Shown here one piece after another: positions 2,183 through 16,337 of a DNA stretch of 16,339 nt. Position numbers and translations under genes: made by a program. This stretch comes from Candidatus Hodarchaeota archaeon (GTDB taxonomy: Archaea; Asgardarchaeota; Heimdallarchaeia; Hodarchaeales; Hodarchaeaceae). Where the stretch lies: positions 1-16,339 of the forward strand of contig JAEOTM010000093.1 of assembly GCA_016839815.1 (NCBI GenBank), given 5' to 3'. Position 1 is the stretch's first letter; each line of letters starts with the position of its first letter. Under the pieces are notes generated by a model. That model worked only from the letters and a program-made list of their open reading frames with translations. It had not been told where the DNA came from and searched no databases.

Positions 2183-3382
2183 TTATATTTCTCCACGCAT
2201 AACTGCATCAAGAAAATCATCCAGAGCCTCAATTTCTTCCTGTGTGCCAGTAGCACTATCAATAAATTCTGCAGTATCAGCGGTTTTTTGGGAAAGACTG
2301 GTTAACATATCCCCAATAGCAATACTATGCATAGTTAATTTTCTTTGTAATTCTTGTGGAGTAGAAATATGATCTCCTAATTTTAGTGCAGACCCAAGGT
2401 CCTCAATAAAAGCGGTCTGAATACTTAGAAGACCTGTTTCGATACTTTGCTTGATTTTCCTAGGTAAATCTGAATCAGATCCATGACGTTCTATTTTTTC
2501 TATTAACCATTTATTCATTAAAAGGATCTCTGGAATACCGGACAGATTTGGAAGTTGTCGATCATTAGGAAATCGCCATTCATGTTGTATCTGATTAATG
2601 AGATTTAAGGTCTCTTTACGAATCATAGACGAAAGTTGATACTCAACAGTTGAGATAATTAAACGATCCATCTTTTTTACAACTGCTTTGAAGACTTCAC
2701 GCAATTGTCCCCATTTATTCTCCTCCTCTGGGAGTGTGAGCTCTAAGATTCGTTTTGGTAAAAGTCTAGCAATTTTTTGAATTAATCGAAACTCAGAATC
2801 AATTCTACTCAACTTTCCAGTCTTGAATACTTCCAATTGTTTCCAATGTGCTGGTTGTTCAATCATATCACGTATTAGCTCAAACAAATATTGATCAGGA
2901 TCAACTACTCGTAACAAATTTATCCCAGATCGAAAATTTAAACGATGGCCACGTTCCCTAACAAGTTCTTTGTATTCTAAACGGGAATGGCTCTCTAATC
3001 CTAAAGATCCCACAATCATGATACCAAAACTGAACTCTGGGATTGGAATTGTAAATTCTTTGTTGAACACCGTCTCTACAGGAATTTTACGATCCCAATC
3101 TATGTTATCCTTTCCACGAATGGAAATATGCTGTCCTTTCGTCTTAAATGCGAGTCTTTTGCCACGTTTATCCTGTTGAAAAATAATACCGTCAGAGGCA
3201 ATTGGAATGAATTTAATATAATTATCATTTTCATCATTAAATTGTTCTATAAACAGGGAGAACAATTCTGACTTACCAAATCCTCTTGGACCTAAAATTA
3301 AGAGAGCTAATTGAAACTGTGAGTCGAAGAGGTCAAAATATCCCAATTCACCATGCAAGCTAAACAATTTTTGATAGCTCAA
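2183..3382 (-). CDS. P-loop NTPase, probably a divergent Ras/Arf-like (TRAFAC) GTPase with large insertions
   Basis: Hydrophobic strand plus Walker A LLILGPRGFGKS (aa 27-38). Later segments resemble G3 (IMIVGSLG), beta4 (INLLRVVDPD), G4 (IPEILLMNKWL) and G5/alpha5 (FIDSATGTQEEIEALDDFL). TTG start, with an in-frame TGA two codons upstream. Confidence 0.6.
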   Translation of the reverse strand: MSYQKLFSLHGELGYFDLFDSQFQLALLILGPRGFGKSELFSLFIEQFNDENDNYIKFIPIASDGIIFQQDKRGKRLAFKTKGQHISIRGKDNIDWDRKIPVETVFNKEFTIPIPEFSFGIMIVGSLGLESHSRLEYKELVRERGHRLNFRSGINLLRVVDPDQYLFELIRDMIEQPAHWKQLEVFKTGKLSRIDSEFRLIQKIARLLPKRILELTLPEEENKWGQLREVFKAVVKKMDRLIISTVEYQLSSMIRKETLNLINQIQHEWRFPNDRQLPNLSGIPEILLMNKWLIEKIERHGSDSDLPRKIKQSIETGLLSIQTAFIEDLGSALKLGDHISTPQELQRKLTMHSIAIGDMLTSLSQKTADTAEFIDSATGTQEEIEALDDFLDAVMRGEI

Positions 3383-5169: not shown

Positions 5170-6009
5170 TTGGGGTATCCATATAGAAATGAAAACAGTA
5201 ATTCGTCGTTTGAATCGCAGGATAAAGTAACAGACGAAATTCTAGCTAGACAGGATAGAGAAGACTGCTGGTTTTTAGGTACTCTTATTGATTTCAATAA
5301 GAGGGTTCCTTCGCATTTTTATCGGTTAAAAAATATACATAATTGTATAACTCATGAGGAAACTGGTTGCGATGTTCGATTTCAGACTAATAACAATATT
5401 GCTTGTCGTCTTGCAGAATTTTTTCCGTTAAAATGGTTAAATATGATCACTAATTGTTTTAAAAATACAAAAGCGAAAGAACTCGGAGTAAGACAGGAGG
5501 ATGATCGATTGTACGCTTATCTTGCCTACATTGACCTTTTACTGATCTTTCGAGGTTTAAAACTGCTTGATTCTACTCTAGAGGAAATTAATACTTCTTT
5601 GGATGTGAATCTAAGTAAACATAGGTTACGAACTTGGCGTCTGAATCTTCTAAAGATCTACCCAGATTTAAGACACAAATGGAAAAGTGTTAGGTCAATT
5701 ACTCCTGCTCGAACTTTTCTCTCAACATTGATCAAAGTATTGAATACAGAAATGAATCTCCAAATCTACTCTACTAAAGAAATGTTTGAGATAAAACATC
5801 AAGCTTTAATCTATGCTCAGGAATTTGTAAAAATGGATCGTATAATGCGTATAAAACGAATAGAAACATGGGTACGAGCTATTTGCTTGAAATCGGTGCG
5901 GGATAATAATCTTAATTACACAGGTGATCTTTTCCCTAATCTTCCTGTCAAGACATTTGAGGTTTTGGAAAATAAGCGATGGCAATTAGATAAAATTCTT
6001 GGGATTTAG
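5170..6009 (+). CDS. Hypothetical protein, possibly a highly divergent TFB/TFIIB (cyclin-fold) homologue without a zinc ribbon
   Basis: 279-aa helical ORF with SD and TATA. LGTLID...HFYRLKNIHN resembles the TFB B-linker (GLSTxID...YRLRKWQ). TLEEIN...LSKHRLRTWR and TPARTFLSTL...EIKHQALIYAQEF resemble TFB cyclin-repeat segments. The ORF itself is confident, the family is tentative. Confidence 0.45.
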   Translation: MGYPYRNENSNSSFESQDKVTDEILARQDREDCWFLGTLIDFNKRVPSHFYRLKNIHNCITHEETGCDVRFQTNNNIACRLAEFFPLKWLNMITNCFKNTKAKELGVRQEDDRLYAYLAYIDLLLIFRGLKLLDSTLEEINTSLDVNLSKHRLRTWRLNLLKIYPDLRHKWKSVRSITPARTFLSTLIKVLNTEMNLQIYSTKEMFEIKHQALIYAQEFVKMDRIMRIKRIETWVRAICLKSVRDNNLNYTGDLFPNLPVKTFEVLENKRWQLDKILGI

Positions 6010-6046: not shown

Positions 6047-8035
6047 CTATATCTCTTCGATAAGCTGTTTATACCGCTCTTTCAATGCTTGTTTTTGCAT
6101 AACGATAGTTTCAAATTCAGATGAGATTTTACGTTTTACCTTCGGATCTGAGGGTAGGACAAGAACAATCTCTTTTAATCGATCTCCGAGTGTAGATATG
6201 GTAGCTTGAATGAAAGTTTTTGCTTTGATTTGTTTTTGAACTATTTCAGAGTTCAAGCTCCACAGAAGCAGGTATTTATCTATAATTGGATTTTCTCCAG
6301 TGATACGTATTCGACGAAAGTGGCTTTGTATGATGATCTTTTCATCATGCTCTGTTATCATCGCTGTTCTGCCAATGAGAAACGTCCCATCATTTACTAT
6401 TAATATATCTCCCGCATTAATATCTTGTTTCCGTTTATATTGATTATATATATCCTCACTTACTTGTTTTAAAGGATTGATATCAATTTCTAAATTAATG
6501 ATATCACTGGTTCGTACAAACGGGATTGTTCCTGTACCGTATGCTTTTGCTCCAATTTCATGACCTCGTGTTATTGAAAGAAATCTTTTTTCTATCAGCT
6601 CTCCCAAAGAGATGACGGTAAACTCACTATTGAGTCTATATGTGTGTAATCGTTCCCTAACATCAGGATCGTAATATGCTGGGATCAGAATGTTATTTAC
6701 TAAATCATCTCGATTAAGTATAAATCCTAAAGCTGAATAATCCAAGTGTTTGTTTGACCTGAATACACGATAGTTTTGGACGATGATAGGTAGATCGTCT
6801 GCAATGACTTTCCTTCCCTCATGATCAGTGAGTGGAATCCCAGTTTCACCGATTCTATATATCTCTTTTCCATTTTTATCATGTCCGACGTTATCTGCTA
6901 TAGCAAAGAATATTGGGTAGTCCTTTTGCTGCTTCGTCTTTTCTACAAATAGAAGTGAAGTTTTAATATGTGTATGAGGCGCAAAAGCTACAGAACTGCA
7001 GCTAATTACCGCTAAAATCGTAAAATTTTCGAGTAGGTAACTAATTATATATCGGTCACTTGTATTTCCAAAGATCCCCTCTGGTAATACTATTGCCATT
7101 CTTCCTCCTGGTTTTAATAATTGTAGACTTCTTTCAATAAATAAAATCTGTGGAGGTTGTCTTTCCCGTATTTCATCACTTTTTTGCCATCTATTCTCTT
7201 CTTTTTGCCATTTATATCCTAAATCATACATATCTAAAACATTGGGATTTGTAACAGAAATTTTGGCTCCAAAAGGGGGATTAGTTAGTACAACATCAAA
7301 CGAATTAAGCTTAATGGCTGATTGACTATTCACTGACCAATTCTCGTAGGAATCTAAAGAATTTTCGCAGAAAATATTAGGTTTAGAGGACTTTAAAATT
7401 GCTAGATGTAGTTTAGAGATTTTTACAAGGAATTCATCTTTATCAATTCCATATAGAAGATTGAAACTTGCATCTTTCTGAAGTGCCATTGTGCTTGTTA
7501 AAAATCCACCAGCTCCACATGCGGGATCGATAATTGATTCATCAGGAGTCGGAGCTAAAATCTGTGCCATTGTTATGGTAATATTTTTTGGAGTAAAGAA
7601 CTGACCTTGTGATCCCCGCAGTGAAGGTAGGAGAATTTGTTCAATAGCATCTCCTATTGCATCTCGTTGTGCCTCACTAATCGCATAGGATTCAAGCAAA
7701 GAAACGATAACCCGTAGGTTTGCATCATCTATGATTAATTGATCGTTTTTCGGATCTAGAATCGTTTTGAATTTAACTTTAAGTTGATCAAATAATCGAT
7801 TTATTCGAACTAAAAGAGGTTGCCTATTGAAATCCTCAATTTGAAACTGAACAGGCTCATTAGACGGAGTTGAGATCTCATCTTGAATTTTACAAAATAA
7901 TAGAAAGAGAACCTGTTCTACTAGTGTATTATCCTGTGTGATACCCTTGAAATTTCCTGCTAAATGATTCCGAATGTCAACAAATGCTTTTTTCAGATCT
8001 GTTGGAACCTTTAGGTCATTTCGTGTAAGTGGCAT
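6047..8035 (-). CDS. N6-adenine DNA methyltransferase (HsdM-like, gamma class) fused to a C-terminal HsdS-like target-recognition domain, with no endonuclease domain
   Basis: HsdM N-terminal helical region (LLFCKIQDE), GQFFTP, motif I IIDPACGAGGFL, YGIDKD, motif IV TNPPFG, LKPGGRMAIVLPEG. C-terminal TRD motifs IPFVRTSDI, GDILIVNDGT-x-x-IGRTA, YLLWSLNS. ATG at 8035 preferred, TTG at 8059 is an alternative. Confidence 0.9.
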   Translation of the reverse strand: MPLTRNDLKVPTDLKKAFVDIRNHLAGNFKGITQDNTLVEQVLFLLFCKIQDEISTPSNEPVQFQIEDFNRQPLLVRINRLFDQLKVKFKTILDPKNDQLIIDDANLRVIVSLLESYAISEAQRDAIGDAIEQILLPSLRGSQGQFFTPKNITITMAQILAPTPDESIIDPACGAGGFLTSTMALQKDASFNLLYGIDKDEFLVKISKLHLAILKSSKPNIFCENSLDSYENWSVNSQSAIKLNSFDVVLTNPPFGAKISVTNPNVLDMYDLGYKWQKEENRWQKSDEIRERQPPQILFIERSLQLLKPGGRMAIVLPEGIFGNTSDRYIISYLLENFTILAVISCSSVAFAPHTHIKTSLLFVEKTKQQKDYPIFFAIADNVGHDKNGKEIYRIGETGIPLTDHEGRKVIADDLPIIVQNYRVFRSNKHLDYSALGFILNRDDLVNNILIPAYYDPDVRERLHTYRLNSEFTVISLGELIEKRFLSITRGHEIGAKAYGTGTIPFVRTSDIINLEIDINPLKQVSEDIYNQYKRKQDINAGDILIVNDGTFLIGRTAMITEHDEKIIIQSHFRRIRITGENPIIDKYLLLWSLNSEIVQKQIKAKTFIQATISTLGDRLKEIVLVLPSDPKVKRKISSEFETIVMQKQALKERYKQLIEEI

Positions 8036-8153
8036 CGCTAAAATTAAGCTAATTTTCAATTATGAATAGTTTTTCCTTTAAATTCTGTAGAGATTTTTTT
8101 CCCTAATCTTTTGAATAAAAAATCTTAAGATTAAGGAGATAAAAAGTAAACTT

Positions 8154-9011
8154 GTGATGAAGGCCTCCTTGTTTACCTTTCCAGTGAAAATAAGGCAAGT
8201 TCAATGGCCATGGAATAACAAAACTACTCCAGAAAGCGTTTTTCCAATTCTGGAAACCTATTTCTCTCATCGAAAAGAGAACAGAGTCAGAAAAGAGGCT
8301 CAATATTCATTCCATGAGGTGACTAGACCTGACTATGGACTGGTACATTCGGTAATTGCAGTCTCTCCAATCTTTCATGCAGAGGGAGGTAATGAATCCG
8401 ATTATTTTACGATAAGAATTTATCAAAAGCCGTTATCAAACCTTCATATGGCATTTAATTTAGCTGAACATCATAAAACGCGTATTGAGCAACTGATAGC
8501 TGCTTTAGGTCCAGACCATTACCCTGAAACATATTTTCTTGAATCCAGTGAGCTATTAATTGTACTCCAGCCCTTTCTCTTTCATCCCGTGTGTGACTTT
8601 TCTACACGTTTAGATGTCTATAATTTAATAGAGTTACTATTTCTTGCGTCTAAATCGAGAATATTGCTTGATTATAATCATAACCACTTTTTAAGAGCCA
8701 GAGATGGTAATTTATATTATGTTGACACCGATTACATGGGTGTCTTATGTTCCAGTGAGTTTAATGCTTTACATTCAAATTTGAATCAATCAATGATATT
8801 TATTAGCGAGTCGAATGCTGAATTTATTCCAGAAAAGCTAATGACCTTCGCTGATCAAAATCAGGAGAGATTAGCTTTTTCTCGACTCTTCCTCACCCTT
8901 CTTGAAGAATATGTTTCACTTTGTCATACTGATGAAGTAAACGTATCCCCTAAATTGATGAAAAAAATAAATGTCTTATCAGATATTTTGCCTATGATAA
9001 AACTTGATTAA
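8154..9011 (+). CDS. Hypothetical protein with probable protein-kinase-like (PKL) fold and non-canonical catalytic residues
   Basis: Ordered kinase subdomain look-alikes: DYGLVHSV, YFTIRIY, YPETYF, LIVLQPFL, ILLDYNHNHFL, DGNLYYVDTD. SD-like AAGGAG at 8133-8138. Confidence 0.6.
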   Translation: MMKASLFTFPVKIRQVQWPWNNKTTPESVFPILETYFSHRKENRVRKEAQYSFHEVTRPDYGLVHSVIAVSPIFHAEGGNESDYFTIRIYQKPLSNLHMAFNLAEHHKTRIEQLIAALGPDHYPETYFLESSELLIVLQPFLFHPVCDFSTRLDVYNLIELLFLASKSRILLDYNHNHFLRARDGNLYYVDTDYMGVLCSSEFNALHSNLNQSMIFISESNAEFIPEKLMTFADQNQERLAFSRLFLTLLEEYVSLCHTDEVNVSPKLMKKINVLSDILPMIKLD

Positions 9012-9031: not shown

Positions 9032-9460
9032 TTACGACTGAACATTTCTAATTTGTTGTTTAATACGATCTACTAGATCTATATTACTCCAAGGTTTTAG
9101 AATATAATCTTTGGCTCCAGCTGCATATCCACGCTCAATATCACTATCAAAACACATTGCTGAAACTAAGATAACAGGAATTTTATTATATCGTGTATTT
9201 GTTTGCAGTTCTTGACAGAAAGTTATTCCATCCGTGCCAGGTAACTTCACATCAAGAATGACTATATCAGGTAATCTCTCTGCTGATTCAAGAAGATTTC
9301 GGGCGTCATCTGCTTTGTATACTTTCTCGGTTGTAAATCCATTCTTTGATAGAATGAGAGATAACAATTCTACTGCGTCTACTTCATCATCAATTATAAG
9401 AACATGAGGCTTTTTGTTTAATTTACCTGTTTTATCCTTTTTATGAGTGAAATTATTCAT
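9032..9460 (-). CDS. Stand-alone response regulator receiver (CheY-like)
   Basis: VLIIDDE acidic pocket, phospho-acceptor Asp in PDIVILDVKLPGTDG, VILVSA, GAKDYILKPW. No output domain. ATG at 9460 (GTG at 9469 is an alternative). Confidence 0.93.
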   Translation of the reverse strand: MNNFTHKKDKTGKLNKKPHVLIIDDEVDAVELLSLILSKNGFTTEKVYKADDARNLLESAERLPDIVILDVKLPGTDGITFCQELQTNTRYNKIPVILVSAMCFDSDIERGYAAGAKDYILKPWSNIDLVDRIKQQIRNVQS

Positions 9461-9596
9461 TCTGATCACTTTTGGGAGGAAAAGATAAATTTGTGAGAAG
9501 TATTCTGTCTTCAGTTGTGGGAATTTGAATCAAGGATTATTTAACATTGATTCTTTTTATATGTTAGTTTATCAAATTATGCTGATAATGGTTATA

Positions 9597-12739: not shown

Positions 12740-13138
12740 TCATGGATCGAATACGGTAGTTGAATATTGCTGACGATACATGCTTTGGATCGAAACCAAT
12801 TCTCCTTTTGTAAGAGTAAGGATTCCCAGCTTTTCAGCCAACTCGCGAGCTGTACTGGAGAACTGATTAGCTACGACCATCACACGGTTTAAACCTGGAG
12901 TATTTGTTTGTAATCGCTCTGCTTCTAATATGCAGTTATATCCACAACTGCGAGACCAGTCTTTAACAACAACTCCAATGTTTCCTCCAAGATTCACATG
13001 AGGATCCGTACTTCCATGAACGAGATAAGAGAACGATACATTTCTGTCATTCTTCCCTCGAATGCTTACATTCTCATGAAATTCAAACTTTCGAAATCCC
13101 AAAAATGCCTGAACAAGCCCGTCTAACTCTTGAACCAT
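12740..13138 (-). CDS. Mrr-catalytic-domain-like (PD-(D/E)xK fold) protein, probably nuclease-inactive
   Basis: NVSIRGKN, GVVVKDWSRSCG, RVMVVANQFSSTARELAEKLGILTL-x-x-x-EL follow the Mrr_cat pattern (V[EQ]CK-x-x-x-x-x-VG ... IVT-x-x-FT-x-x-A-x-E-x-A ... I-x-L-x-D-x-x-EL). Confidence 0.7.
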   Translation of the reverse strand: MVQELDGLVQAFLGFRKFEFHENVSIRGKNDRNVSFSYLVHGSTDPHVNLGGNIGVVVKDWSRSCGYNCILEAERLQTNTPGLNRVMVVANQFSSTARELAEKLGILTLTKGELVSIQSMYRQQYSTTVFDP

Positions 13139-15920: not shown

Positions 15921-16337
15921 TTACTTTCCTCCTGTTTTTCCTTCTTTAATTAAAGTAGAAAGTATCTGTTCACTGGTTAACATGGGAAAATGTGCTTTAA
16001 GAATTCCAAATAGCTTATCGTACGTAATATCGTTTGCTTGTTTTTCTGAATCTGCAATGACCGCCTTAATTCGTCTTTTCATATTTTCATCAATTTCACT
16101 TTTTTCAACACTTCGAGCTTCCCGATTATAAGTACCTGTCCGACTTATCTCACGAATAATATCCTCTAGATAGTCTTTAGAAAGTTGATTGGTTATCAAA
16201 CCAGTCAATAACTGCTTATAAATTTTTGAATTTGATTCTTTGATTGCATTATGCTTCCTCAAGAAAAATGATACTTTTTGTATTAATCCTAAAGTCTTTC
16301 TACAGAACTCTGGGAATTCTTTTACTATAGACGAAAA
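15921..16337 (-). CDS. gatE: C-terminal helical part of a larger protein, probably GatE (truncated by the window edge)
   Basis: The frame stays open from the TTG at 16262 to the window end (FSSIVKEFPEFCRKTLGLIQKVSFF-LRK...). The helical tail (LSKDYLEDIIREI) resembles the GatE/Yqey-like tail. Its TAA is 1 nt before the gatD ATG with a GGAGG SD inside it. gatD and gatE are commonly adjacent. Identity rests mainly on context. Confidence 0.55.
   Translation of the reverse strand, partial: FSSIVKEFPEFCRKTLGLIQKVSFFLRKHNAIKESNSKIYKQLLTGLITNQLSKDYLEDIIREISRTGTYNREARSVEKSEIDENMKRRIKAVIADSEKQANDITYDKLFGILKAHFPMLTSEQILSTLIKEGKTGGK

Follow-up and report, generated by a model that had tools for sequence, protein, structure and literature searches.

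The 16,339-nucleotide stretch of DNA analysed here (the window: positions 1 to 16,339 of contig JAEOTM010000093.1, assembly GCA_016839815.1, from a Candidatus Hodarchaeota archaeon) carries on its forward strand a gene whose 284-residue product is, by its predicted structure, a small bilobed member of the protein-kinase-like (PKL) superfamily, in the size class of Bud32, RIO and APH/choline kinases. On balance, by a little more than an even judgement, we regard it as a small kinase-fold enzyme, divergent but active, that works as a phosphotransferase or ATPase and whose nucleotide–metal site is modified by Arg and His. Hodarchaeales belong to the groups of archaea that most often come out nearest to eukaryotes, and hardly any of the genes specific to them have been studied; since no eukaryotic counterpart of the gene is detectable, it has no direct bearing on eukaryogenesis. 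The family to which the gene belongs numbers at least 68 sequences in two deep clades, with paralogues, none of which any sequence database recognises as a kinase, and the catalytic cleft appears to be under strong selection yet departs from the textbook Lys/Glu/Asn set. The natural variation within this single family, K/R/E on strand β3 and H/N at the fifth residue after the catalytic aspartate, is a ready series for probing kinase residues that are held to be essential.

The bilobed kinase fold on which the original prediction had staked itself was found in the AlphaFold2 model of the protein, which was built on 20 homologues and is confident (mean predicted local distance difference test score, pLDDT, 88.7; predicted TM-score, pTM, 0.86). 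The β-rich N-lobe, with an αC-equivalent helix, is followed by a helical C-lobe, the elements succeed one another in exactly the order of a protein kinase, as in the PKL superfamily (Pfam clan PKinase, CL0016), and every motif that had been listed from the open reading frame (ORF) is present and lies where it had been placed. A Foldseek search of the PDB gave 23 matches at E ≤ 1e-3, all of them kinase-fold proteins, including RIOK1/2, JNK, CDC7, the macrolide phosphotransferase MPH and Bud32, at low TM-scores of 0.3–0.4. In an unbiased search of 48,161 PDB chains, 48 of the 50 best rows were of the kinase fold, the ATP-binding domain of NIS synthetases being counted in, and the named neighbours returned by a protein language model (Kdo, WaaY, APH, RIO1, ABC1 and YrbL; scores 0.91–0.93) all belong to the PKinase clan. 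A classical Hanks-type protein kinase was rejected, as the model has no activation segment: only about ten residues lie between D190 and the next core helix, so that neither an activation loop nor a peptide-binding platform is expected.

Conservation was assessed over 68 non-identical members, collected through whole-genome searches, a word-index search and an exhaustive HMMER scan that took in 1.84 billion representatives; the most distant of them share 24% identity with the window protein, and the set falls into the two deep clades. Fourteen positions are invariant in all 68: R57, R109, P123, F140, P144, L171, D172, N174, L179, Y188, D190, D192, Q211 and N220; G61, Q138 and H177 are each kept in 67 members and N176 in 66. 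The reading frame is open from 8154 to 9011, and the start is taken to be the ATG at 8157 (MKASLF...), not the GTG at 8154, because the close relatives, which all begin MK(A/S/D)SLF, share this ATG and have no GTG before it, the preceding codon there being no start. The residues first numbered R88, D173, H178 and D191 therefore become R87, D172, H177 and D190: the original numbers were one too high, whereas the spacing had been read correctly, with H177, D190 and D192 standing 5, 18 and 20 residues after D172. The two aspartates that had been put forward as catalytic are thus unchanged throughout the family.

These two residues occupy the positions of the HRD and DFG equivalents, a catalytic-loop aspartate after helix αE and a metal-binding aspartate about 18 residues later, directly after β8. 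The asparagine usual in PKL proteins at the fifth residue after the catalytic aspartate is replaced by H177, and asparagines are found instead at +2 (68 of 68) and +4 (66 of 68). Nor do the 68 members show a β3 Lys/αC Glu pair, there being no conserved acidic residue in helix 102–117. Judged from the alignment, the main peculiarities of the family are the histidine at +5 with asparagines at +2 and +4, the loss of the HxD histidine, the loss of the αC glutamate, and the invariant R57 and R109. Both the fold searches and the alignment of 68 members agree with the original description of a minimal PKL core in which both aspartates are retained and the nucleotide- and metal-binding residues altered. 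Because the aspartates and the whole catalytic loop are strictly kept against a background identity of 24–40%, an active site is indicated rather than a decayed one, which is the chief ground for doubting a pseudokinase, and among the options first offered (pseudokinase, small-molecule kinase or an enzyme with other chemistry) the pattern of conservation favours an active enzyme.

The residue at position 87 on β3, where the VAIK lysine of protein kinases sits, is Arg in 59 members, Lys in five and Glu in four. The five Lys87 sequences constitute one paralogue clade, and one paralogue of this clade has DYNQSN in the catalytic loop, which brings the canonical asparagine back at +5; these natural R/K and H/N exchanges support the equivalence of R87 with the VAIK lysine and of H177 with Asn171 of PKA. 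The substitutions are less unusual than was first assumed, and the exchange of lysine for arginine is by itself no sign of a pseudokinase, since Arg on β3 is common among co-resident APH paralogues and binds an ADP phosphate in human choline kinase. The genomes of the window and its relatives each carry 6–12 bona fide APH-family (PF01636) genes, and 15 such paralogues, when aligned, have a β3 motif hLRhY, very like the TIRIY of the kinase-fold protein, with Arg in 11 and Lys in three. In human choline kinase α2 the α-phosphate of ADP is contacted by Arg146, Asn311 and Asp330 (PMC4364537). The exchange in the window protein is thus in keeping with an active enzyme from a lineage resembling choline kinase and APH.

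In its catalytic motifs and in their spacing the protein resembles the APH/choline-kinase type (D..N..IDxE) more closely than it does RIO, Bud32 or Kdo kinases; fold scores cannot separate these families. Of the RIO/Bud32/Kdo-like core that had been proposed, the PKL core stands, and the motifs point to a different closer affiliation. The choline/ethanolamine kinases and aminoglycoside phosphotransferases (APH) are among the closest known systems, examples being LicA (PDB 4r77), YihE/SrkA (1zyl) and two APH-family proteins (4pdy and 7s3l). The catalytic residues of pneumococcal LicA, D176, N181, D194 and E196 (PMC4364537), have a spacing of +5/+18/+20, which is identical to that of D172, H177, D190 and D192. 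The ID[FWY][ED] motif of APH/choline kinases (as defined in PMC4364537) has its counterpart in V-D190-T-D192-Y, with both aspartates in all 68 members, whereas the Brenner motif HxDxxxxN is altered: LLDYNHNH keeps the aspartate, the histidine is replaced by Leu, Phe or Val, and the asparagine at +5 by His. The family further differs from APH/choline kinases in having no αC glutamate and in its asparagines at +2 and +4, neither the window protein nor any of 23 members compared with Pfam scores above the gathering thresholds of PF01636 and PF01633, and the protein is much shorter (284 residues against about 300–360), so that the large helical substrate-binding subdomain of those enzymes is probably missing.

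Neither Bud32 nor a RIO kinase accounts for the gene. Identity with Bud32 (PRPK/TP53RK, the atypical kinase/ATPase of KEOPS; TIGR03724) was rejected, because TIGR03724 matches another gene of the genome, on contig C6, and does not match the kinase-fold protein, which also has Arg for Lys and His for Asn; no Kae1 neighbour or fusion was found in the 16 loci compared. A RIO orthologue was likewise rejected: a genome search with PF01163 finds four other genes, Rio1, Rio2 and a RIO-like gene are present elsewhere, and the family has no sequence match to RIO kinases or to the archaeal tRNA 2'-kinase ArkI (PDB 7vnx), no RIO flexible loop and no N-terminal winged helix-turn-helix. Since the genome has its own Bud32, Rio1, Rio2 and RIO-like genes, the kinase-fold gene represents an additional family.

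If the protein is an active enzyme of this kind, a nucleoside triphosphate would lie in the interlobe cleft, where Arg87 on β3, in place of the lysine, and the invariant Arg57 of the β1–β2 loop would hold the phosphates. By comparison with the P-loop of choline kinase (PMC4364537), the turn R57–G61 would be the loop that binds phosphate. One or two divalent metals could be bound by the pair Asp190/Asp192, in which the ID[FWY]E motif of choline kinase takes a D-x-D form, and also by Asn176, His177 or both from the catalytic loop. Asp172 would act as the catalytic base, or would position the acceptor, for transfer of the γ-phosphate, and the acceptor may be a hydroxyl of a small molecule or of RNA, or water in the case of an ATPase.

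Several observations weigh against an active phosphotransferase or ATPase. The αC glutamate is missing, the Gly-rich loop has one glycine only, and a histidine stands in place of the metal-binding asparagine; four members have Glu87, which would repel phosphate; and the clustering of the conserved residues in the predicted cleft is deduced from the topology of the model. No clue to a substrate that is constant across the paralogues was found in the neighbourhoods. Sequence-profile methods link the family to no kinase family: in hhalign comparisons with the aligned Bud32, RIO and APH proteins of these genomes, none of the probabilities was significant (Bud32, P 0.035, over only 29 columns; RIO, P 0.45; APH, P 0.015), even though the short segments that do align are in the register one would expect. 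When every six-frame ORF of the genome was searched with a hidden Markov model (HMM) of the family, the APH, Bud32 and RIO genes ranked among the noise.

Some of these features are those expected of a pseudokinase, which might bind a nucleotide or another ligand without catalysis and act as a scaffold, sensor or allosteric partner. The missing Lys/Glu pair, the degenerate Gly-rich loop, the His for Asn and the lost HxD histidine would all suit such a protein, as would Glu87 in four members and an evolution faster than that of the syntenic neighbours (34–42% against 50–60% identity). KSR and STRADα are pseudokinases with the same exchange of Lys for Arg on β3; they are, however, eukaryotic protein-kinase domains with activation segments, whereas the present family keeps both HRD/DFG-equivalent aspartates invariant. 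Pseudokinases usually lose at least one of the catalytic residues, whereas the aspartate pair, D192, N174, N176 and H177 are invariant or nearly so in 68 sequences, and Arg on β3 is nothing unusual in active enzymes such as choline kinase and those of the APH type, so that a pseudokinase is considered rather unlikely.

The Arg/His-rich site could also accommodate a non-canonical nucleotide pose and hence another chemistry, such as AMPylation or nucleotidyl transfer, an adenylate-forming ligation like that of NIS synthetases, or the use of a phosphodonor other than ATP. This is improbable in our view: NIS synthetases are twice as long and score below Bud32, APH and RIO, in spacing and in the D-x-D motif the family agrees exactly with ordinary phosphotransferases, and a flipped nucleotide finds no positive support.

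As originally stated, the gene is unannotated: scans of the protein with Pfam, NCBIfam and PADLOC found nothing, the database homologues are all named 'hypothetical protein', and a comparison of 23 family members with Pfam gave no match to a kinase family even at E ≤ 1. Literature searches found no paper on the family, and searches for longer or fused forms found none, which counts for little. Searches of PDB sequences with phmmer and with profiles gave nothing significant (E 0.6–1.3); the profile match at E 1.3, itself not significant, pairs HCDVNHNNWLLSEDNQLYLIDWD of an APH-family protein with LLDYnhnhfLrseeeklyYvDtD and sets the APH-family catalytic loop (HCDVNHNNWL) and IDWD motif colinear over 23 residues. 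Likewise, the hhalign comparison with the Asgard APH alignment places the P-loop, the β3 arginine and αC-β4-β5 in register over 93 columns, at a P of only 0.015. Assignment to DUF6206 (PF19709), proposed by a protein atlas at a cosine of 0.96, was rejected, because only 21–46% of the cluster members carry that family, hmmscan gave no DUF6206 match to the kinase-fold proteins, and a search of the window's own genome gave only an unrelated 13-bit match.

All named homologues come from metagenome-assembled genomes of Candidatus Hodarchaeales, Hodarchaeota or Heimdallarchaeota. Among the genomes searched, the family is present in 18 of the 21 of one GTDB genus-level group, with two copies in seven genomes. 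A close profile did not find it in 40 other genomes of the class, a broad profile found in about 380 further Asgard genomes nothing but one 20-bit fragment with a stop codon in it, and a profile of the second deep clade (clade B, consisting of P0025–P0036 and P0057, the last from Heimdall LC_3) did not find it in 62 other Heimdallarchaeia genomes; scans of metagenome and genome contigs gave loci of clade A only. The family is a Hodarchaeales invention, in a lineage that carries many APH paralogues, and a divergent APH/choline-kinase-like gene is a possible source, to which the sequence searches lend no support.

Coordinates of the kinase-fold gene, its predicted structural elements and the neighbouring features (window positions unless a locus is named; residues counted from the ATG at 8157)
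Feature	Position	Strand	Residues	Basis and remarks
Kinase-fold coding sequence	8157..9011	+	1-284	284 residues and stop; homologues begin at the equivalent ATG; 68 intact homologues
β1			45-57	AlphaFold2 secondary structure
β1-β2 turn R57-P-D-Y-G61, equivalent of P-loop (Gly-rich loop)	8325..8339	+	57-61	AlphaFold2 secondary structure and conservation
β2			62-73	AlphaFold2 secondary structure
β3, YFTIRIY, R87 at the VAIK lysine position (8415-8417)	8403..8423	+	84-90	AlphaFold2 secondary structure
αC-equivalent helix with invariant R109 (8481-8483)	8460..8507	+	102-117	AlphaFold2 secondary structure and conservation
β4			126-129	AlphaFold2 secondary structure
β5, LLIVLQP			133-139	AlphaFold2 secondary structure
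αE			151-166	AlphaFold2 secondary structure
Catalytic loop LLDYNHNHFL, with D172 (8670-8672), N174, N176 and H177 (8685-8687)	8664..8693	+	170-179	AlphaFold2 secondary structure and conservation; between αE and β7
β7			178-180	AlphaFold2 secondary structure
β8			186-188	AlphaFold2 secondary structure
D190-T-D192, equivalent of DFG / ID[FWY]E metal-binding motif	8724..8732	+	190-192	Directly after β8; both Asp in 68 of 68; followed by four C-terminal helices
Conserved upstream element TGAATAAAAAATCTTAAGAT, then AGGAG	8112..8138	+		Intergenic alignment of five close relatives; candidate TATA/promoter
N6-adenine DNA methyltransferase with type I specificity-like (TRD) domain	6047..8059	-	670 in all	PF02384; divergent, 97 nt from kinase-fold gene
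Lone response-regulator receiver domain	9032-9469	-	145 in all	Convergent, 20-nt gap to kinase-fold gene
THEP1-type NTPase of a distant orthologous locus	L022:8846-9376	+		Likewise in L017, L021, L023, L027, L082, L083 and L020; Walker A GxPGxGKTT, Walker B DExGxME

The region upstream of the gene, in a window of about 35% G+C, contains a 20-nt A/T-rich element (8112–8131) followed by AGGAG (8134–8138), both of which are kept in the alignment of the five close relatives and probably form the promoter and ribosome-binding region. The element TGAATAAAAAATCTTAAGAT sits in a divergent intergenic region of 97 nt that is common to the kinase-fold and methyltransferase genes.

The neighbourhood comparison covers 16 loci of clade A, in which the syntenic block has the order 279-residue gene without an assigned family, N6-adenine methyltransferase–TRD gene, kinase-fold gene, lone receiver, GNAT, amidohydrolase and MBL hydrolase. 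No histidine kinase was found in the window to go with the receiver. The methyltransferase, which is syntenic in 12 of the 16 loci, resembles MAD2 of the MADS defence system (NCBIfam, 306 bits against a cut-off of 720; PADLOC mad2, 1e-46), and no restriction subunit was found near it. Two conserved genes of the block, at 5170–6009 (+) and 2183–3382 (−) of the window, have no Pfam family.

The divergent pair invites comparison with the kinase and methyltransferase pairs of BREX type 2/Pgl or MADS, that is, with a DNA-modification or defence module, all the more as the two genes stay together in 12 of the 16 loci, including the rearranged genome L020, as the methyltransferase is MAD2-like, and as the kinase-fold gene evolves faster than its neighbours. 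The kinase-fold protein, however, has no PADLOC match, the MAD2 score lies far below its cut-off, and the nuclease, ATPase or phosphatase partners of BREX and MADS are not present. Moreover, synteny within one genus extends over the whole block of about 12 genes, so that the adjacency may be inherited, and the paralogues and a second orthologue group have no methyltransferase; a defence module thus seems very unlikely.

Among the block's more distant orthologues, the kinase-fold protein is 34–42% identical and its neighbours 50–60%, which indicates its faster evolution. These loci have a THEP1-type NTPase of 176–181 residues (PF03266, E 2e-45) downstream on the same strand, separated by 1–18 nt or overlapping. 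In L020 only this NTPase, the kinase-fold gene and the methyltransferase are still together. Neither the window nor any of its four closest relatives has the NTPase at the equivalent position; it was lost in this clade, and the only trace elsewhere in the genome is a weak NTPase_1 relative. As all of the loci belong to one genus and adjacency may be inherited, the links to the NTPase and the methyltransferase are regarded as leads. A more far-reaching proposal, to which we give little credence, is that the site of Arg57, Arg87 and Arg109 with its Asn/His residues marks a Hodarchaeales-restricted enzyme of non-canonical chemistry or unusual substrate, which might, for example, use a transition metal bound to His177 to phosphorylate or nucleotidylate RNA, DNA or a metabolite derived from a nucleotide, and which would have worked ancestrally with the THEP1 NTPase and perhaps with the methyltransferase.

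Around the paralogues and in another orthologue group the neighbouring genes are unrelated ones, for a Ras-like GTPase, VIT1, a TPR protein and ParA. In the loci L018 and L019 (G016:C6 and G001:C3), which form the second orthologue group, a gene for a 520-residue TPR protein follows the kinase-fold gene and a ParA-like ATPase gene lies upstream; a gene for a 322-residue RIO-like kinase is found about 2 kb from the kinase-fold gene.

Two smaller reading frames of the window were also noted. A small Mrr_cat-like ORF at 12740–13138 (−; E 9e-4) exceeds every other gene of the block in conservation, with 95–96% identity in close and about 70% in distant relatives. At 15921–16337 (−) an ORF that runs off the end of the window has a weak Pfam match to Cmr5 (CRISPR type III-B) at E 4e-4, just below the cut-off, and its homologue in the relatives is 387–571 residues long.
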